Source of the DNA: Clostridia bacterium
Lineage (GTDB): Bacteria; Bacillota; Clostridia; Oscillospirales; CAG-272
Direction of reading: 5' to 3'
Assembly: GCA_017505785.1 (NCBI GenBank)
Contig: JAFVOQ010000004.1
Coordinates: 733-64,732 of the forward strand
Length of the DNA: 64,000 nt
Position numbers and translations under genes: made by a program. This document shows positions 481-15,943 of this stretch, piece after piece; position 1 is the first letter of the stretch, and each line of letters starts with the position of its first letter. A model generated the notes under the pieces. It did no database searches and was not told the DNA's origin. It saw only the letters and a list, made by a program, of their open reading frames with translations.

Positions 481-3400
481 TTACGCCTCAACAGCTTCTC
501 TTTCACCCTGCTCCACGTGCACGTCATGGTAACATGTCATGCCCGTACCTGCGGGAATAAGCTTACCGATGATAACGTTCTCCTTAAGGCCCATCAGGTG
601 GTCTACCTTGCCCTTAATTGCAGCCTCGGTGAGAACCTTGGTGGTTTCCTGGAAGGATGCAGCGGACAGGAAGGACTCGGTCTGAAGCGATGCCTTTGTG
701 ATACCCAGCAGCACGCGAGAAGCGGTTGCCTCACGCAGGTTTTCGCCTGCCGCGACGCGCTCCTTGATCTTGTTGTTCACTTCCTCAAAATCAAGCACAT
801 CCATAAGCGTTCCGATCAGCAGCTCCGTATCACCCGCATCCTCTACATGAACCTTACGGGTCATTTGACGTGCGATGATCTCTACGTGCTTATCGTTTAC
901 GCTAACGCCCTGCGAACGGTAAACCTTTTGAATTTCCTCGGTGATATACTCATAAACCTTATCAAGTCCGCTGATACGCATGATGTCTGCGGGTGCCTTG
1001 CTGCCTGCGGTGAGCACCTCACCGCGCTCTACATGGTCACCCTCGGCAACCACGATCTGCATGCCGTAAGGAATGGTATACTTGTGCATTTCGCCCGTAG
1101 CGTCATCCACTACGCTGATCTCGTGCACGTTAATATTTTCACCGTGTGCAACGCTGAGAATCTTACCGGTTTGCTCGCAAATAATGGCAGCCTTCTTGGG
1201 AGGTCTTGCCTCAAAGAGCTCCTCAACGCGGGGCAGACCCTGCGTAATGTCAGTACCTGCGACACCACCGGAGTGGAAGGTACGCATCGTCAGCTGAGTA
1301 CCGGGCTCACCGATCGACTGTGCGGCAATGATACCGACAGCCTCACCAACGCTAACGGTCTTACCGGAAGCAAGGTCAGCACCGTAGCAGTGTGCACAAA
1401 TACCGTGACGTGCATGGCACTTCAAGAGTGTGCGGATCTTGACACGCTTAATGCCTGCCGCCTCGATTGCCTTGATGTGTGCCTCCGTGATCATGGTGTC
1501 GTTCGGAACGATAACCCCACCCGTTTCGGGGTGTACCACCTCACCGAAGGTGTAGCGGCCCATGATACGGTCGGAAAGTGCCTCAAGCGGATTTTGAGGA
1601 TCCTTGACATTGGAAATCTCCTTAACCCATTCGCCGTCGGTCGCATCACAGCAGACCTCGCGTACGATAACGTCCTGCGAAACGTCAACCAAGCGACGGG
1701 TAAGGTAACCCGAGTCTGCGGTACGAAGTGCCGTATCGGACAGGGATTTACGGGAGGAACGAGAGCCCATGAAGTACTCAAGGATCTTCATACCCTCACG
1801 GAAGTTCGATTTGATCGGGATCTCCATGGTTTTACCGTTGGTCGCGAACATCGAACCGCGCATTGCGGCAAGCTGACGCATCTGCTGGATAGAACCGCGG
1901 GCACCGGAATCTGCCATGATCTTGATCGGGTTTTGGGGGTGGAAGCATTTCATCATCGCAGCGGTCACATCGTCGGTTGCAACCTTCCAGATCGCGATGA
2001 TCGAATTGTAACGCTCCTCGTCAGACAGAAGACCGCGGCGGAAGGAAGCGTTGATACGGTCAACGGTCGCCTGTGCCTTATCGATAAGCTCGGGCTTCTC
2101 CTTCGGTACGCTCATGTCGTACACCGAGATAGAGAAGGCAGCACGGGTGGAGTAACGGTAACCCATTTCCTTGATGTTATCCAGCATCTCTGCACAGTCG
2201 GCAGCGCTGTGACGCTTCAAGCAGTTGTCAATGAGCATACCAAGGATCTTTTTCACATTACCCTTCTTAGCCTTCAAGAATGCAGTATCGATCTCCATTT
2301 TGAAGATATTCTCGGGCTTGGTGCGATCCACAAAGCCAAGATCCTGCGGAATACTGTTATTGAAAATAAGACAGCCAAGAGAGGTTTCAATCATTCCCGT
2401 AACGACCTCGCCGCCTACTTCCTTGCTCATGCGCACCTTAATGGGTGCGTGAAGTCCCAGCGCACCGTTGACGTAAGCCATATTTGCCTCGTCAAAGTTG
2501 CGGAAGGTCATGCCTTCACCGGGCTCGCCGGGCTTCTCCATGAGAAGATAGTAGGTACCAAGGATCATATCCTGCGTAGGCACCGCAACGGCACGGCCGT
2601 CAACGGGCTTTAACAGGTTATTGGCGGAAAGCATCAAGAAGCGTGCCTCAGCCTGTGCCTCTGCGGAAAGCGGTACGTGTACGGGCATCTGGTCGCCGTC
2701 AAAGTCAGCGTTAAATGCGGTACAAACCAGCGGATGCAGCTTAATGGCGCGACCCTCAACCAAAACGGGCTCAAATGCCTGAATCGAAAGGCGGTGCAAG
2801 GTAGGTGCACGGTTCAGAAGAACGGGGTGCTCCTTGATCACGTTCTCGAGTGCATCCCAAACCTCGGGATGCTGGTAAGCGCGCTCGATCTTCTTTTGCG
2901 CTTCCTTGATATTGGTCGCCTTCATCATTTCGGTAAGGCGTTTGATCACGAAGGGCTTAAAGAGCTCGAGTGCCATTTCGCGGGGCAGACCGCATTGATA
3001 AATCTTAAGATTGGGACCGACAACGATAACCGAACGGCCCGAATAGTCAACACGCTTACCGAGCAGGTTTTGACGGAAGCGACCCTGCTTACCGCGCAGC
3101 ATCTCGGAAAGAGATTTGAGCTGACGATTGGAGGGACCCGTTACGGGCTTGCCGCGACGGCCGTTGTCGATGAGTGCATCCACAGCCTCCTGCAGCATAC
3201 GCTTTTCGTTGCGTACCACGATCTCGGGCGTGTGGATCTCCATGAGCTTTTTAAGACGGTTGTTACGCGCGATCACACGGCGGTAAAGCTCGTTGAGATC
3301 GGAGGATGCGAAACGACCGCCGTCAAGCTGGGTCATGGGGCGAATTTCAGGGGGAAGAACAGGCAGCGCATCAAGGATCATCCAATCAAGATGATTGCCA

Positions 3401-10712: not shown

Positions 10713-12032
10713 TTAAATAATTTTAAGCGTGCCGTTTTGTCCCGGCAGTATCGCGCAGTCGTGCGACAGCAAAACGGTGTATTTTTCATTGCCGTATTTT
10801 TCCACAAAGGCACGGCTTCTTTCCCGATCGAAGGATGCCCCCGTAGGGCGTTTTTGTATCAGACAATCGCGATGATAGCACTCATCACCCGCAATGACGT
10901 ATTCCCTACCCCTATGAGAAAAGGTAACAATGGCAGAGCCTGCCGAATGACCGCCCCATACCGACACCGTAATGCCCGCGATCTCACGGGATTTCTCAAA
11001 GGGCACAACCTTAAGATTGGAAGGCAAAAATCCCTTTTTGGCGGCATATTCGCATTCCTTTGCCGCGATATGTACGGTGGATTTTGTAAAGTAGTGCGCC
11101 GCCCCGGCGTGGTCGTTGTGGGCGTGGGTAAGAACAAGATCGGTAATATCAAACGGGGACACCCCCATACGGCGGAGTGCCTCGACGGGGGAAATATGAT
11201 ATTTTACATCATATCCCGGCATGGTATCACAGCCTGCGTCAACAAGGATCCTTCTGTTTTTTACCTTAATGAGATAGAGCGTGAGGGAAATAGGTACTCT
11301 TGGATGTTCCCCTTTCGTATCGGCAAAAGCCATGCGAATGGGAATATCTGTTTCGCCGTATTTGATCGCAATGACCGAAAGCCGCCCAACGCATCGATAC
11401 CAAAGGTAAAAGCAGGCGAAAACAGGAATCAACAAAAAGAGCAGCAGCGGTGTATATAAAAATGCCACAAGCAACACGGCAAGCACGCTCGAAAAAAATG
11501 CCGCAATGGGGCGCATCCGCTTTTGCGGCAAGCAAAGTGCACCGCAAAGGAGCACCGCCACAGCGAAAAGCAGAGCCGTGGCAAGCCACGCGCCCGCCGC
11601 CGTCAGCTTGTCTTGCCAAAAAGGAGCAACATCGCCAACAGGATCAACACCGAAAAACGCCAAAGCGTTACGAAGCACCGTAAATGCCGCGAAATAGTAA
11701 ACGGCACTCGGCAACAGCCACCGAGGGAAAAGCGCGCGGTCTTTCCCTTGCAGGATCAACACAAGAGCGCGCATATCAAGCGCGATAAATACAAGTGCCG
11801 CCGGTATCACTGCGGGATTATACAACAGCGCACCGACAAGGTCAAGGCGCAAACAGGAAAGGAAGGCACGCGTACCGCCGCAAAGCGGACAGTACAGATG
11901 TAGGATATCGTGCATCAAGCAATGATAGGCTTGGTTTTTTAAAACAATAACCGAAATAAATCCATAGAACGCAAAGGCCACCGCAAAAAGTAAAAAAACA
12001 ACGTGATAGCGAATATACTGTTTTAAGCGCAC
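10713..12032 (-). CDS. Membrane protein: N-terminal DUF2752 domain fused to a C-terminal MBL-fold metallo-hydrolase
   Basis: 439 aa with a GTG start and a GAGGAGGGG RBS. The N-terminus has the CPLCGGTRA motif and about 6 hydrophobic helices. The C-terminal half has HAHNDHAG (HxHxDH) and other MBL-like segments. Confidence 0.8.
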   Translation of the reverse strand: MRLKQYIRYHVVFLLFAVAFAFYGFISVIVLKNQAYHCLMHDILHLYCPLCGGTRAFLSCLRLDLVGALLYNPAVIPAALVFIALDMRALVLILQGKDRALFPRWLLPSAVYYFAAFTVLRNALAFFGVDPVGDVAPFWQDKLTAAGAWLATALLFAVAVLLCGALCLPQKRMRPIAAFFSSVLAVLLVAFLYTPLLLFLLIPVFACFYLWYRCVGRLSVIAIKYGETDIPIRMAFADTKGEHPRVPISLTLYLIKVKNRRILVDAGCDTMPGYDVKYHISPVEALRRMGVSPFDITDLVLTHAHNDHAGAAHYFTKSTVHIAAKECEYAAKKGFLPSNLKVVPFEKSREIAGITVSVWGGHSAGSAIVTFSHRGREYVIAGDECYHRDCLIQKRPTGASFDRERSRAFVEKYGNEKYTVLLSHDCAILPGQNGTLKII

Positions 12033-12110
12033 GTAGCTCCCCTCCTCTCAAAAGAACACCTGAAAGTATATCATATTATGTGTTTTATTGCAAGTTTTTT
12101 TCACAATTGC

Positions 12111-12139
12111 TTGATTTTTTACAGAAAAACAGGTATAAT
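12111..12139 (+). promoter_or_regulatory. Promoter (TTGATT-17-TATAAT)
   Basis: TTGATT at 12111-12116, a counted 17-nt spacer, and TATAAT at 12134-12139. Confidence 0.55.
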
Positions 12140-12169
12140 GAACCTAACGACCACGAAAGGAGTTGCTTT

Positions 12170-12583
12170 ATGGATAACAATCAAAACAACTTTAATCAAA
12201 ACAATGGGCAAAACGAAGGGTGGTCCTATCAAAGCGGACAGTTTTACACACCCGTGACGCCTATCGATAGCACGGCGATGCAGGCAAACCAATCTGCCTC
12301 CTCCTCCCAAACGCTTGGTATTGTAGGACTGATCATTTCACTTATCTGCTGCCCTTTGATCGGCATCATTCTTGGTATTATTGCGATCAGCAAGGCTTCG
12401 ACAGCAAAAAGCTTGCTTGGACATGAGCCCTCTGAAGCAAAAACGGGACGCATCTGCGGCATCATTGCCATTATTTTGGGTGTGCTCTCCATGATCTTGA
12501 GTGCCATTATATACGTCATTAACATGGCACTGATCATGGAAGCACTGGAGAGCATGATGGTTTGGCTCCCATTCTTCCTGTAA
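12170..12583 (+). CDS. DUF4190-like small membrane protein with an N/Q-rich N-terminus
   Basis: Internal ATG 12170 has an AAAGGAG RBS. The protein reads MDNNQNNFNQNNGQNEGWSYQ... and then GIVGLIISLICCPLIGIILGIIAISKA, a typical DUF4190 helix pair. Confidence 0.7.
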   Translation: MDNNQNNFNQNNGQNEGWSYQSGQFYTPVTPIDSTAMQANQSASSSQTLGIVGLIISLICCPLIGIILGIIAISKASTAKSLLGHEPSEAKTGRICGIIAIILGVLSMILSAIIYVINMALIMEALESMMVWLPFFL

Positions 12584-12593
12584 TCAACAAGGC

Positions 12594-12610
12594 AAAAACA
12601 GCCGCTTCGC
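12594..12610 (+). repeat. Left arm of a perfect 17-nt inverted repeat (AAAAACAGCCGCTTCGC)
   Basis: It is the exact reverse complement of 14112-14128. Further matching blocks (TGTTGTT, CGGAGAAAT) extend the similarity to about 50 nt. Confidence 0.9.
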
Positions 12611-12740
12611 GAAAGCGTGATGTTGTTATCGGAGAAATCACTAACAGCAAAAATTGAATCGCAGAAAACAAAGAGATAACCCCGACAGATTTTTAGGTCT
12701 ATCGGGGTTTGCTTGTGCTGTTCTATAAATTGGAATTTGT

Positions 12741-13409
12741 TTAATTCTTTTCGGCAATCCATTTCTTTGACCAAGCGAACAATGTTTCAGACATCAAATT
12801 GAACTCTACTGTTCTGCCATTTTTCAAATTCAAAAAGGTTTCCACAATGACTCGTTCATCGAAAGATACAACTTGAAGCAAATCCTTTTGATGGATGATA
12901 TAGTTTCCTGTTTGCTTAAAAACAATTGCCTGTACAACAAAAGAAGCAGATTTATACAATCCTCGTAAAATATCTTCGCTCTTTTCATACAGCATATTGT
13001 GTACACATCCATGGAATATGTTGCAGGTACCGATTTTGATTGCTCTGTTCACAACACTTTCATCAATAACTGCCATCACCTCATCAAGGCTTCCCTGAAT
13101 TGGTGTGGTATCATGGCAAAACTGGAACAGGTCAGATGGCTCCCAATTCAAAACTTCACTCTTACCTGAGAGAAAACCACAAATCAAATCCCTGTGAGAC
13201 AGGGTATCCAGCATGTCATTATATGTTTGGATGTCCATGGCCGACAATTCATCAAGAATTACAACAACATCAATATCGCTTGTTTCTGTTGCTTCACCAC
13301 GACCATAACTGCCTTGCAAACCAACAAACCATACACGATTTGCGAAAGTCTCATTTAATGACTTCAAGAAATTTTTCATCCAAGCAGTAATATCTATCAT
13401 CTCAGTCAC
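12741..13409 (-). CDS. Pol-beta-type nucleotidyltransferase with a helical C-terminal domain (KNTase/ANT-like architecture)
   Basis: 222 aa with LQGSYGRGEATETSDIDVVVILD (hG[GS]x9-13DxD NTase signature). The C-terminal ~110 aa are helical. Codon usage is AT-rich. Confidence 0.7.
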   Translation of the reverse strand: MTEMIDITAWMKNFLKSLNETFANRVWFVGLQGSYGRGEATETSDIDVVVILDELSAMDIQTYNDMLDTLSHRDLICGFLSGKSEVLNWEPSDLFQFCHDTTPIQGSLDEVMAVIDESVVNRAIKIGTCNIFHGCVHNMLYEKSEDILRGLYKSASFVVQAIVFKQTGNYIIHQKDLLQVVSFDERVIVETFLNLKNGRTVEFNLMSETLFAWSKKWIAEKN

Positions 13410-13519
13410 CTCGTCAAATTCTTATTTATCGTTCTGTTATTTCGCCAGTTTCGCATTTGTATTACAAATGCATCGGGCAAAGCCCATACCCCTTTGGAGA
13501 TGTACGATAGCGTTCAAAG

Positions 13520-13554
13520 GCTCCCTCCGGGAGGGAGCTGTCAGCGAAGCTGAC
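13520..13554. repeat. Two adjacent short palindromes (CTCCCTCC-GGAGGGAG and GTCAGC-gaa-GCTGAC)
   Basis: Read directly. The first is related to the hairpin at 13631-13649. On the minus strand it would encode SLPEGA, which echoes the SLREGG tail of the DUF559 ORF. Confidence 0.7.
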
Positions 13555-13617
13555 TGAGGGAGAGTGCGTACCAATAAGATTGATCCAACCGAAAAGTCAC
13601 GCAGGCTCCTTCCACCG

Positions 13618-13995
13618 CTAACGCGGTCCCCCTCCCTCTCGGAGGGAGGCTTTCACGGCGGCATCTATATACTCGCAGACACCACGAAAGTTTGTGTTGA
13701 TTTGTCTGTTTGTAAAGCGAATTACCCTCAAATCGTATCCTTCAAGGATTTCAGTTCGAAATTCATCTTTTTGCCTGCCGTCTTCGGTATAATGCTGTGA
13801 GCCATCAATTTCTATAATCAATTTTGCTTTGTGACAATAAAAATCCGCAATAAAATTATCGATTGCTTTTTGACGTTGAAATCTTACTTCGTATTTTGAC
13901 AAGAAATCGTACCACAAATGTTTTTCCTGCGGTGTCGCATTTTTGCGCAGATTTTTGGCAAGAGTAATATTCTTTTCGTTATACTCAAGTGACAT
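13618..13995 (-). CDS. DUF559 / Vsr-like endonuclease domain protein
   Basis: 125 aa with LRKNATPQEKHLWYDFL...FQRQKAIDNFIADFYCHKAKLIIEIDGSQH...D..R...L...G..V.RF.N, the characteristic DUF559 pattern. Confidence 0.85.
   Translation of the reverse strand: MSLEYNEKNITLAKNLRKNATPQEKHLWYDFLSKYEVRFQRQKAIDNFIADFYCHKAKLIIEIDGSQHYTEDGRQKDEFRTEILEGYDLRVIRFTNRQINTNFRGVCEYIDAAVKASLREGGGPR
13631..13649. repeat. GC-rich hairpin CCTCCCTC-tcg-GAGGGAGG in the 3' end of the DUF559 gene
   Basis: 8-bp stem with a 3-nt loop, read directly. Confidence 0.7.
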
Positions 13996-14111
13996 ATTTA
14001 CTCCTCCCCATATTCATTGTTTCCATTACATCACAAAATCGGCAGAAAGAAAAGTCCTTCTGCCGAAATTTTTGTGCTTGCAATTTCTCCGTTAAGAACA
14101 ACAGAGAAATT

Positions 14112-14128
14112 GCGAAGCGGCTGTTTTT
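14112..14128 (-). repeat. Right arm of the 17-nt inverted repeat (GCGAAGCGGCTGTTTTT)
   Basis: Exact reverse complement of 12594-12610. It abuts the stop codon at 14129-14131. Confidence 0.9.
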
Positions 14129-15943
14129 TTAGATCACAGTCAGTCCAAAGAAGCAGATCAAAAACAAAAATACCAGATAAAGGATCGCCATATATGCAAT
14201 GCGCTTATGCACCTTGCGGTCAAGCACTGAGGCTACAAAGGCAACCACATAAGAAACCGTGGCACCGATGCCGACCAATAGCGTGAGCACACGCATAGCA
14301 AAATAGAAGGAGGAAAGCAGTGCCGTGCCCATTTTATATGCCGCAAGCACCTGCACACCCACCAATATACTAAGCAGTGCCGCCAAAACATCAGGTAGCA
14401 CAAACCACACACCTGCATGCTCGCCGTGCGTGTTTTTCTCACCAAGCCACTCAAAAAAGCCAAACACGCCCATCAAAGCAAAGCCCGCTGTGAGCAACAG
14501 CAACAGCCCAAACAAAAACGCCGCTGGCACACGTGCATAATAAAACGGAAGCTTATAATAGCACTCACCGGTGGCGGTGACTACTGCCGTGACCTCGCCT
14601 TCCCCGTCAAGCAAGAACTGCAAAACAGGCGTGCTTGCATCCCCTGCCGCATCGGCAAAAACACCGGGCGCGATCTGCATGAGGCGCATATCAAGGAAGG
14701 AAAGCGTACCGTCATCATTTACTGTGGCAGAGATACGCTCTTGCATGGTGAAAAATCGACCCACAAAGGTGTGCTGCTCACTCGTTGATACAGCATACGT
14801 GCCGCGCAGTGCCTTCAGCTCTACCATTTCGCCAACAGGCAAAGCGGGGCTCACTGCGGTTGGTGCAAGCGCTGTCAATGGGAAATCAAGCAGGGTGCTT
14901 TGCGGTACGTTTGTAAGCACCAATGCAGCCTCACGCTTTTCGGTATCAAGACAAAGCGAAGCACCAAAGCAAGCGGTTTTTGCATGGCAGGTATATGCCG
15001 TGCCCTGTTTACTCAGCGCAAGGGCTGTTGGGGAGAAAATGCCGCTATGATAGGGGGTAAAAAGCAAATTCTTGGTTGATGCGCGCATCAAGGCTTCACT
15101 GTCGGACACCAGCCACGCAAGCAGCCTTGAGAGATCTTTGGCGGTGGAAAGTGCGCCCGTGGCAGGATAAAGACCTGCATAGCTTTTTCCGCCGTTTTGC
15201 GGTGCCCTAAAGGAGCCCTCTGCCACCTCCCTGTAGCCTGTGGCGTAGTCTTTGTCATCAACGTTTGAAGAGCGCATTGCCACGGTACCACTCATGCCAA
15301 GGGGCGTGAGTACATGATCGTTCAGATATGCCTCATATGGGGCACCCGAAGCCTGCTCCACTACAAAGGCGGCAAGCGAGATGCCGAACGCCGAATAGGA
15401 ATATGCCGTTCCCGGTATCATGATCTGCTCGGGTACATCGGCAAGCAGTGCCTCCTCAAGCGTTTCAAAGCAATGGCTTTCTTTATCAAAGGATATATCA
15501 AATATTCTGCCACCAAAGCCCGCGCACCCCGACAAAAGCTGCCCCACGGTAACGGGATAGTCAAGCGCAAGCTTTGCCATAAACTCAGCAGGCAAATATG
15601 CCGCAATATCCGCATCAAGGGATAACACACCCGTATCCACCAGCGTTAAAGCCGAAATGGCGGTGAGAAGTGCAGAGAGTTCACCGATTTCAAACACCGT
15701 ATCACCGGTAACGAGCACGCGCGAGGAAAGATCGGCATAGCCAAACCCGTCTGCCATAAGAACCGTACCGTTTCTCACAAGCACCACGGCAGCCCCGGGG
15801 GTATCCACACCGACAGCTGTTGCTGCTGCCTCCTGCGCTTGTGCGACCGACGCATCAAAAGGAGTGGCAACGGTAGCTGACATGGGCAACACACATATGA
15901 CAAGCAGGAAAACAGCCAGTAAAACGCTAAAGATCCTTTTCAT
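14129..15943 (-). CDS. Beta-lactamase-fold (serine hydrolase family) protein with a signal peptide and C-terminal multi-pass membrane region; active-site motifs degenerate
   Basis: 604 aa. The N-terminal signal is MKRIFSVLLAVFLLVICVLP. The family-typical segment DTVFEIG-ELSA-LLTA has ELSA where SxxK is expected. YSA replaces YxN. Four to five hydrophobic helices lie at the C-terminus. Confidence 0.75.
   Translation of the reverse strand: MKRIFSVLLAVFLLVICVLPMSATVATPFDASVAQAQEAAATAVGVDTPGAAVVLVRNGTVLMADGFGYADLSSRVLVTGDTVFEIGELSALLTAISALTLVDTGVLSLDADIAAYLPAEFMAKLALDYPVTVGQLLSGCAGFGGRIFDISFDKESHCFETLEEALLADVPEQIMIPGTAYSYSAFGISLAAFVVEQASGAPYEAYLNDHVLTPLGMSGTVAMRSSNVDDKDYATGYREVAEGSFRAPQNGGKSYAGLYPATGALSTAKDLSRLLAWLVSDSEALMRASTKNLLFTPYHSGIFSPTALALSKQGTAYTCHAKTACFGASLCLDTEKREAALVLTNVPQSTLLDFPLTALAPTAVSPALPVGEMVELKALRGTYAVSTSEQHTFVGRFFTMQERISATVNDDGTLSFLDMRLMQIAPGVFADAAGDASTPVLQFLLDGEGEVTAVVTATGECYYKLPFYYARVPAAFLFGLLLLLTAGFALMGVFGFFEWLGEKNTHGEHAGVWFVLPDVLAALLSILVGVQVLAAYKMGTALLSSFYFAMRVLTLLVGIGATVSYVVAFVASVLDRKVHKRIAYMAILYLVFLFLICFFGLTVI

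Follow-up and report, generated by a model that had tools for sequence, protein, structure and literature searches.

A probable non-autonomous mobile gene cassette inserted in a host transcription terminator of a Clostridia bacterium

What is the AT-rich, two-gene islet that lies between the arms of a perfect inverted repeat at the meeting point of two convergent genes in a Clostridia bacterium, and how did it come to be there? The locus falls within a 64,000-nucleotide stretch (hereafter the window; positions 733 to 64,732 of contig JAFVOQ010000004.1, assembly GCA_017505785.1). A sequence-only reading of this DNA had proposed that the interval, which carries a nucleotidyltransferase (NTase) gene and a DUF559 gene, was inserted into the loop of an ancestral bidirectional terminator or, alternatively, that the arms are true terminal inverted repeats. 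Comparison with related genomes and with copies at other sites gives good support to the insertion of a mobile element, at approximately 12612-14109, at the apex of a host terminator. We consider it probable that this element is a non-autonomous cassette placed at the apex of the terminator shared by the two convergent host genes, and that its family is mobilized by a RAYT-like Y1 transposase. The family appears to be a large and undescribed group of mobile gene cassettes in gut Clostridia.

The repeat itself is exact: positions 12594-12610 read AAAAACAGCCGCTTCGC and positions 14112-14128 are the reverse complement, without a mismatch over 17 nucleotides. When up to three mismatches are allowed, the 17-mer occurs at these two sites only in the 64-kb window, and by rough calculation a perfect 17-nucleotide inverted pair within 1.9 kb is expected by chance about 1e-4 times. 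Inward of the arms, the repeat continues imperfectly over 38 nucleotides (12618-12655 and 14066-14103, 74% complementary). The GC content of 12611-14111 is 39.7% as against 52.1% for the rest of the window (37.6% and 39.7% for the coding sequences of the NTase and DUF559 genes, respectively), a difference from which we conclude that the insert is of foreign origin. Pfam recovered NTP_transf_2 (PF01909; E = 4e-8; 12741-13409, minus strand), DUF559 (PF04480; E = 3e-28; 13618-13995, minus strand) and Beta-lactamase (PF00144; E = 5e-43; 14129-15943, minus strand). The perfect arms, their imperfect inward continuation, the AT-rich interior and the assignment of an NTase and a Vsr-fold DUF559 nuclease, all first described from the letters alone, were thereby borne out.

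The outer arms, the bases that separate them from the element and the two host genes are as follows.
12594-12610, no strand: A-run and 12-nucleotide stem arm CAGCCGCTTCGC, which form the left half of the host's bidirectional terminator; in L009 the same arm is part of an intact hairpin.
14112-14128, no strand: right half of the host bidirectional terminator, GCGAAGCGGCTG and a T-run (inverted-repeat search; hairpin of L009).
12611, no strand: one-base remnant of the original hairpin loop between the right end of the element and the host arm; homology to other contexts stops at 12612.
14110-14111, no strand: what is left here of the original loop, reading AA on the minus strand; the loop may also have supplied the first T's of the left end (cf. 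AATTA, the loop of the empty site in L084).
12170-12583, plus strand: host gene for a small Q/N-rich membrane protein, 137 amino acids from the ATG at 12170 (open reading frame; 137-amino-acid gene call in identical contigs).
14129-15943, minus strand: host gene for a 604-amino-acid membrane-anchored protein of beta-lactamase fold (PF00144; open reading frame and Pfam; orthologues with empty sites).

The membrane-protein gene (stop codon at 12581-12583) converges on the terminator, with the left arm beginning 10 nucleotides past its stop, and the stop codon of the beta-lactamase-fold gene (14129-14131) abuts the right arm, as had been read. The DUF4190 label originally given to the membrane protein was not reproduced: Pfam and NCBIfam returned no DUF4190 match, and only sub-threshold matches to MpPF26/DUF4064 and to a 'CCC motif membrane protein'.

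With the beta-lactamase-fold protein as query, a scan of genomes turned up six related species (L009-L014; L numbers denote the loci compared). In L010-L014 (53-83% identity), orthologues of the membrane-protein and beta-lactamase-fold genes are directly adjacent, separated by a gap of 46-83 nucleotides that in each case holds a single hairpin of A-run, GC-rich stem and T-run (the gap segments as folded give -27 to -33 kcal/mol). The closer species L009 (85% identity) retains the exact stem of the window in intact form, AAAACAGCCGCTTCGCT-GAT-AGCGAAGCGGCTGTTTT, that is, CAGCCGCTTCGC(T)-GAT-(A)GCGAAGCGGCTG. Among metagenome orthologues, sites are empty in L085 and L086 (84%), in L084 (87%; hairpin GCAGCCGATTCGC-AATTA-GCGAATCGGCTGC) and in L060 (96% identical), and filled in L061 (98%), so that presence of the cassette is polymorphic among close strains (96% empty versus 98% filled). 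The single hairpin predicted for the empty site was thus found, with the exact stem in L009 and one hairpin each in L010-L014, L060 and L084-L086, and these empty sites strongly support the view that the cassette entered the loop of an ancestral bidirectional terminator hairpin. The perfect 17-nucleotide arms are the two halves of the host hairpin.

Two of the empty loci have features of their own. In L060 (4815-4910) the terminator stem is GATCTGC, as in the more distant L010 lineage, and not GCTTCGC, as in the window and L009, a pattern that suggests recombination between lineages at the 3' end of the beta-lactamase-fold gene. In L009 (7856-7991), a left-end-like repeat (TTGTAGCTTTAGCGGAAAT) and a GC-rich repeat directly follow the intact hairpin and precede the end of the contig; a related element may have inserted beside, and not in, the terminator of that species.

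The ends of the element are defined by copies at other sites.
12612-12641, minus strand: right-end terminal inverted repeat, GTGATTTCTCCGATAACAACATCACGCTTT on the minus strand; common to 37 distinct insertion sites.
14080-14109, minus strand: left-end terminal inverted repeat, TTTCTCTGTTGTTCTTAACGGAGAAATTGC on the minus strand, itself a hairpin; shared with L020, L028/L047, L055/L057 and L061.

By blastn, the window shares DNA from about 13493 to exactly 12612 with six unrelated contexts, and the final shared bases are ...GTGATTTCTCCGATAACAACATCACGCTTT; beyond this point each context continues with 9-14 nucleotides particular to the site, followed by a T-run. Metagenomes scanned for the right end yielded 35 loci, which together with other copies found make 37 distinct right flanks, and the left-end repeat likewise recurs at other sites in the loci just listed (the end motifs of the element are TTTCTCTG...CGGAGAA). 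A run of at least four T's starts 13-21 nucleotides after CACGC in 33 of the 37 right flanks versus 12.7% of random positions, which argues that the element sits in a terminator. Thirteen copies are complete, with both ends (0.7-4.6 kb); a further copy of about 220 bp has no open reading frame (L029), and its left flank runs off the contig. When the outer flanks of the complete copies were joined, terminator-like hairpins were recreated in 12 of 13, with a mean folding energy over the 13 copies of -20.3 kcal/mol versus -9.5 kcal/mol (standard deviation 4.6) for 150 mismatched flank pairs. Inspection by eye revealed no evident common sequence among the target flanks besides this structure. Statistically, the family inserts almost exclusively into terminator hairpins, with a TT, located at the loop or close to it, directly 5' of the insertion point. 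Neither a blastn search of a plasmid collection with the cassette nor a right-end scan of viral contigs returned a match.

The homology of the ends at other sites, together with the rejoining of flanks, identifies the inner repeat as the element's terminal inverted repeat and the outer one as host DNA. The two options of the sequence-only reading are therefore not exclusive: the idea of true terminal inverted repeats holds for the inner ~30-38 nucleotides, and the outer 17 nucleotides belong to the host stem. That no insertion took place at all, the cassette being ancestral and since lost from relatives, with the inverted repeat a product of chance or of local evolution, is next to inconceivable. 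Such a history has nothing to recommend it beyond the bare pattern of presence and absence; eight relatives at 53% to 96% protein identity have the intact single hairpin exactly at the junction, the GC content of the cassette is foreign, and the same ends and NTase occur at dozens of unrelated sites. We consider loss of an ancestral cassette in the relatives excluded by the empty-site hairpins and the copies elsewhere.

In L044, 4.6 kb separate the end repeats, and the flanking 'host' hairpin (CCCGACAGAA / TTCTGTCGGG) resembles the internal terminator of the family, so that this locus may be a nested insertion, one element within the terminator of another.

The junctions point to a preferred dinucleotide. 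Of 12 complete copies, 11 have TT just 5' of the left-end core (CTCTG... or GGCGTGAT...), and CACGC-N-TT closes the right end at 34 of 37 sites. At the window, the junction reads CGC-AATT, then the element, then C-GCG, which fits the empty loop AATTA of L084. In L062 the TT is located 4 nucleotides inside the stem, and the rule of insertion therefore seems to be 'TT near the hairpin apex'. Either insertion 3' of the apex TT without duplication (as in IS608) or a 2-nucleotide duplication of TT fits these junctions. A further pair, L019 and L024, offers one junction only, and its intact hairpin lies at a contig end and may be an assembly fold-back.

Comparison of copies revealed a modular plan, oriented along the minus strand of the window: left-end repeat, second hairpin with promoter, first gene slot, spacer, one cargo gene, terminator and right-end repeat. 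In the window, the modules between the end repeats are these.
14023-14066, minus strand: left-end hairpin (14039-14066, CGGCAGAAGGAC-TTTT-CTTTCTGCCG), then a T-run and the -10-like box TGTGATGTAAT (about 14025-14035); a terminator-like scan match.
13618-13995, minus strand: DUF559 gene (Vsr-like PD-(D/E)xK endonuclease fold) in the first gene slot (PF04480).
13500-13660, no strand: GC-rich palindromic repeat with arms at 13516-13537 and 13632-13653, overlapping the 3' end of the DUF559 open reading frame.
13414-13493, minus strand: conserved spacer of ~80 nucleotides with two small hairpins (GGGC-TTT-GCCC and GCATTTGTA-A-TACAAATGC), found upstream of more than 12 unrelated cargo genes.
12741-13400, minus strand: cargo gene for a 219-amino-acid NTase with a two-domain fold like that of aminoglycoside nucleotidyltransferases (PF01909; AlphaFold2 model; PDB folds).
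12678-12709, minus strand: element-borne intrinsic terminator, CCCCGAtAG...CTGTCGGGG with a T-rich tail, kept downstream of different cargo genes.

As single-stranded DNA the left end folds strongly (-29.4 kcal/mol, z = -7.0), and the same left-end module in L016, L020 and L062 has a perfect extended -10 box, TGTGTTATAAT. This anatomy suggests that read-through from the host beta-lactamase-fold gene ends at the left-end hairpin, with the genes of the element transcribed from the promoter behind it. The element would then replace the terminator that its own insertion split, such that the host genes stay terminated and the cargo is expressed autonomously.

The spacer is located between the first gene slot and the cargo gene. 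Across an alignment (A2) of the window and 15 other loci, its hairpin pairing is kept in 97.7% of cells, and the evidence from covariation is only suggestive because a single pair covaries: within GC(A/C)TTTGTA-A-TACAAA(T/G)GC, this pair is A-T versus C-G (9 against 5 sequences). Four loci have an extra palindrome inserted in the left arm of the spacer hairpin. Located where cargo genes differ, the spacer may be a site of cassette exchange or of regulation. A second type of left end (TGGCGTGATACTCTTAWCGGAGTATCACGCCAG, with a perfect 12-bp hairpin) is seen in L019 (186-410) and L023 (860-1080), where it stands ahead of an array of five or six small GNRA-like hairpins at (A)ATATCAC spacing upstream of the promoter; the hairpins may serve to bind a protein or belong to a structured RNA. 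Rfam searches of 12000-14600 gave chance-level matches only, with no family beyond these at E <= 1, which excludes any group II intron, riboswitch or known small RNA from this segment.

Which enzyme might move such cassettes? In six copies (L022, L047, L048, L054, L059 and L062), the first slot, directly behind the left-end promoter, encodes a 170-190-amino-acid protein of the Y1 type, and these six share the spacer and right end of the family. The protein matches E. coli TnpA-REP (PDB 4ER8) at E = 6e-8, with the HUH and tyrosine regions covered, and the NCBIfam model 'REP-associated tyrosine transposase' at E = 7e-18 (65 bits). The HUH motif (MPNHIHLL) and the tyrosine of KYIYENP are invariant in nine Y1 members. 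Homologues at E <= 1e-20 number 3540, and two of those listed are named 'transposase' and 'RayT' in their sources. The intact element of L062 sits between convergent genes and runs from AAAAAAAGCGCCGCTTC through left end, promoter, Y1, spacer, HD-domain cargo, terminator and right end to GAAGCGGCGGCTTTTTT, the flanking terminator arms matching apart from one base; the same site is found in eight places shown from 18 contigs.

Stages of loss are also represented. The Y1 gene of L047 has a nonsense codon; L028, at the same site as L047 and otherwise equal to it, has a deletion after which the first ~40 Y1 codons remain; and L019 and L023 retain the last Y1 codons. Judged from these sequences, the copies that lack Y1 are decay products. 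In the first slot of the window, DUF559 and the GC-rich repeat stand in place of Y1, and we infer that this copy is non-autonomous and that the Y1 enzyme is the mobilizer of the family.

Several observations weigh against this assignment. The 65-bit NCBIfam score falls under the 80-bit cut-off of that model, and a Pfam scan of Y1 returned nothing at E <= 0.01, the IS200-type Y1_Tnp model included. Within the 64-kb window, tblastn and blastn-short found neither a Y1 gene nor a second copy of the ends, nor further copies of the spacer or the GC-rich repeat; the original statement that no transposase is present is true of the window. The Y1 relatives in L059, L070, L078 and L083 have a different left end (GTTCTCATAAGGATGTTTAC), and L070, L078 and L083, read on their downstream side, lack the right-end repeat. 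REP-like palindromes of GTAG type accompany Y1 genes and could be the real substrate of Y1, and Y1 is tied to the inverted-repeat ends by correlation. Further, true inverted repeats are atypical of IS200/IS605-type transposition, and the right end, as single-stranded DNA, has no significant fold (z = 0.4). As for the insertions themselves, the flanks of one complete copy (L020) do not rejoin into a hairpin, and no filled and empty sites with an identical loop could be paired (L009, L010, L060 and L084-L086 differ from the window in loop or stem).

Some of the same evidence would suit an element like a mobile insertion cassette (MIC) or MITE, mobilized in trans by an insertion sequence, not seen here, that shares its ends and encodes a conventional DDE transposase, with the Y1/RAYT genes as no more than frequent passengers. 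True terminal inverted repeats of ~30 nucleotides fit such an element, and their fit counts against Y1 as well, as does the possibility that the T-rich bases at both junctions are a target duplication of 2-4 nucleotides; the ~220-bp derivative without an open reading frame (L029) and the Y1 genes without these repeats (L070, L078 and L083) point the same way. However, among the open reading frames listed upstream of the right end at the loci examined, a subset of which was scanned with Pfam, Y1 was the only transposase-like one noticed. The position of Y1 is fixed behind the left-end promoter in six copies, and its remnants persist in copies that have lost it. Further, the left end is a strong hairpin as single-stranded DNA, and apex targeting independent of sequence would come more naturally to an enzyme that acts on single-stranded DNA. 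On balance we regard a DDE partner as unlikely, and mobilization by the RAYT-like Y1 enzyme as probable.

Y1 genes and their elements bear additional palindromes. GTAG-tagged REP-like palindromes lie within the Y1 coding sequence of L059 (at element coordinates of about -1275 and -1115), L047, P0229 and P0254, where they form an inverted pair that encodes VGTGVLDCP and GQSRTPVPT; in some homologues these are tandemly expanded peptide repeats. REPIN-like doublets (GTAGGGGCGAAC…GTTCGCCCCTAC) lie between the cargo terminator and the right-end repeat of several elements (L016:5760-5820; L062:4235-4275; and just upstream of the right end in L046, L049, L050 and L058), and their presence inside elements indicates that the cassettes also carry classical RAYT-type substrates. 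In L078, a Y1 element with an alternative left end (GTTCTCATAAGGAAGTTAAC) is flanked by a 26-nucleotide direct duplication (2385-2410 and 3123-3148). The duplicated segment comprises a host gene end and the left arm of a terminator, whose hairpin stands intact to the right of the element and not to the left; this type of junction differs from the split hairpins.

The sequence-only reading had taken the DUF559 nuclease to be the only candidate mobility function; on this view it could spread the cassette by a homing-like cut at terminator hairpins. The protein is a secure member of its family (98.4 bits against a gathering threshold of 20.6 bits over residues 10-113 of PF04480); its Vsr-like nuclease fold and its recurrence in the window, L020, L024 and L055/L057 speak for such a role. 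Those copies are nonetheless a minority: most same-ended copies lack DUF559, including the eight NTase contexts and most of the 37 sites, and in fuller copies (L047, L059 and L062) its position is held by the RAYT-like Y1 gene. Its slot varies, first in the window and second in L055, and it travels with a GC-rich repeat of its own. Homing, moreover, needs homologous flanks, and the flanks here are unrelated. We consider a mobility role for DUF559 very improbable and reject it: DUF559 is a passenger, as its absence from most copies, its occurrence in either slot and its own repeat indicate.

The GC-rich repeat (…GGGAGCTGTCAGCGAAGCTGACTGAGGGAG… / CCTCCCTCTCGGAGGGAGG) accompanies DUF559 genes, overlapping their 5' or 3' coding ends. 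It recurs at L024:239-389, L056:1-134, L055:1015-1044 (L055/L057) and L052:1255-1276, with a related motif at L009:7925-7965, and gives the impression of a small family of repeats in its own right, moving together with DUF559.

In the mechanism that we favor, the Y1 enzyme would mobilize cassettes as single-stranded DNA, recognizing their hairpin-forming ends and attacking terminator hairpins extruded on single-stranded DNA. The window copy would rely on Y1 supplied in trans or else be stranded, with DUF559 and the NTase as passengers. More tentatively, and as a conjecture to which we would not yet commit, the family could represent an undescribed class of gut-Clostridia transposons that move as single-stranded DNA, in which a RAYT-like Y1 enzyme, guided by structure and not by sequence, inserts self-contained promoter-gene-terminator cassettes 3' of the apex TT of nearly any terminator hairpin, with cargo exchange at the spacer and dissemination like that of integrons. 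If so, it would be the first natural case of RAYT-type enzymes moving genes, possibly including a drug-modifying enzyme of aminoglycoside-nucleotidyltransferase (ANT) fold.

How does this family compare with known systems? RAYT-like Y1 genes flanked by terminal inverted repeats have been described as TIRtrons or TIRYT (Di Nocera et al., 2013, PMC3733652; Quentin et al., 2018, PMC6006769), and the TIRtron/REPtron type is the closest known kind (PMC3733652, PMC6006769). TIRtrons and the present family have in common a RAYT-like HUH/tyrosine gene with terminal inverted repeats on either side, which also occur as a dispersed repeat family, and some TIRtron repeats are partly self-complementary. 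In the cassettes this dispersal applies to the repeats at 12612-12641 and 14080-14109, the right end being present at 37 distinct sites. A Y1 gene is found in same-ended relatives and is lacking from the window copy, which is at best a non-autonomous derivative of such a unit. By contrast, described TIRtrons consist of a transposase gene and repeats, with no passengers, promoter or terminator modules or target preference reported, whereas the present family has variable cargo, many copies that keep cargo without Y1, and insertion at terminator apices; its repeat motif is also unlike the published GGGGWSAS.

REPtrons and REPINs share with the family the type of Y1 (best matched by TnpA-REP 4ER8 and the NCBIfam REP-associated model), the bracketing of a unit by inverted doublets of a hairpin-forming repeat, the extragenic location between convergent genes and the co-occurrence of GTAG palindromes. 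REPINs, however, are gene-free units of ~100 bp, thought to be inherited vertically with a single-copy, domesticated RAYT; the 'loop' of the cassette doublet comprises 0.2-4.6 kb of genes, copies are 94-100% identical across contexts, and the terminal repeat has no GTAG tag. IS200/IS605 elements (IS608, ISDra2; PATE derivatives) resemble the family in the Y1 HUH class, the left-end hairpin, the lack of a clear target duplication, an insertion apparently 3' of a short motif (here TT) and the existence of non-autonomous derivatives. These elements, however, lack inversely repeated ends, insert at a particular tetra- or pentanucleotide and not at a hairpin apex, and have TnpB or IscB as their accessory gene in place of variable cargo. 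The family Y1 is not an IS200-type TnpA by the Pfam Y1_Tnp model, and the window has no Y1 of any type. In place of subterminal hairpins at both ends without terminal repeats, the cassette has a strong fold at the left end only and ends that are mutually inverted.

MICs (for example, MIC231 of Bacillus cereus) carry the ends of a known DDE insertion sequence and have fixed target duplications. MICs and MITEs have in common with the cassettes terminal inverted repeats, the lack of a transposase, one or two passengers and presumed mobilization in trans, but no DDE partner and no fixed duplication were seen in the copies examined. Other elements also target palindromes or terminators: IS1397 and ISKpn1 use REP loops, IS1630 uses terminator-like inverted repeats, and group IIC introns insert downstream of terminator stems. 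The preference for extragenic stem-loops, at minimal damage to the host, is shared, but the enzymes concerned are DDE transposases or a reverse transcriptase paired with a ribozyme; insertion of IS1630 leads to duplication of the entire inverted repeat, and group IIC introns insert after the stem, not within it. Features of a group IIC intron were absent, with no Rfam ribozyme in 12000-14600 and no reverse transcriptase domain in the Pfam search. Integron cassettes offer a functional resemblance only, as single-gene units with varied cargo that recombine through hairpins; no integrase gene was noticed in the loci examined, where no dedicated attC search was made. In the literature on terminator-loop-targeting or cargo-carrying RAYT elements we found only the TIRtron/REPtron descriptions and general statistics on insertion sequences and terminators, and the carriage of cargo and the targeting of terminator apices appear to be new.

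RAYT/TnpA-REP proteins are widespread and usually viewed as domesticated, single-copy and cargo-free, and neither their activity in vivo nor the spread of REP and REPIN sequences is settled. With near-identical cassettes at dozens of locations, Y1 genes in both intact and decayed state, and sites that are clearly filled or empty, the family would make a tractable natural system for the study of RAYT-type transposition. Insertion at the apex by an element with its own terminators and promoter amounts to a 'safe-harbour' strategy and could explain the spread of accessory genes among uncultured gut Oscillospiraceae. For annotation, perfect inverted repeats around AT-rich islets between convergent genes provide a simple diagnostic of insertion.

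The cargo genes of the family are diverse: NUDIX hydrolases, a GNAT acetyltransferase, an HD-domain protein, a 23S-rRNA-IVS protein, DUF4299, lipoproteins and unknowns. The NTase of the window may also start at a GTG, giving 222 amino acids (to 13409); an exact look-up of this form found no record, and the 219-amino-acid ATG form (P0008) is on record. An identical 219-amino-acid protein occurs in 91 blocks of the contig collection, in at least eight gene neighbourhoods among the ten places shown, mostly between convergent genes. Among the matches listed, near-full-length homologues in public metagenomes are 94-100% identical. We reject a functional pairing of the NTase with DUF559, since the NTase is usually found without DUF559.

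An AlphaFold2 model of the NTase from 51 diverse homologues (pLDDT 97.3) shows the two-domain ANT architecture, a Pol-beta NTase domain and a helical bundle, as a similarity of fold only. Its closest PDB folds are ANT(4')/KNTase, AAD(9) and AadA (TM-scores 0.5-0.67, 11-16% identity), followed by Hailong HalB and LinB. The best NCBIfam match, ANT(4')-II, is confined to the N-terminal motif and scores 21 bits where the cut-off is 350 bits, and PADLOC and NCBIfam searches with the NTase and DUF559 gave generic motif matches, with no membership of a defence-system, toxin-antitoxin or curated resistance family. A drug-modifying role is possible; if the ANT-fold NTase does modify antibiotics, the family would be an unrecognised vehicle of resistance genes. 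The same NTase gene (99% nucleotide identity) also occurs without either terminal repeat in L015 (4973-5699) and L021 (2476-3239), directly behind a cyclase gene in an ATP-synthase neighbourhood, where it appears to be an immobilised derivative that has lost its ends.

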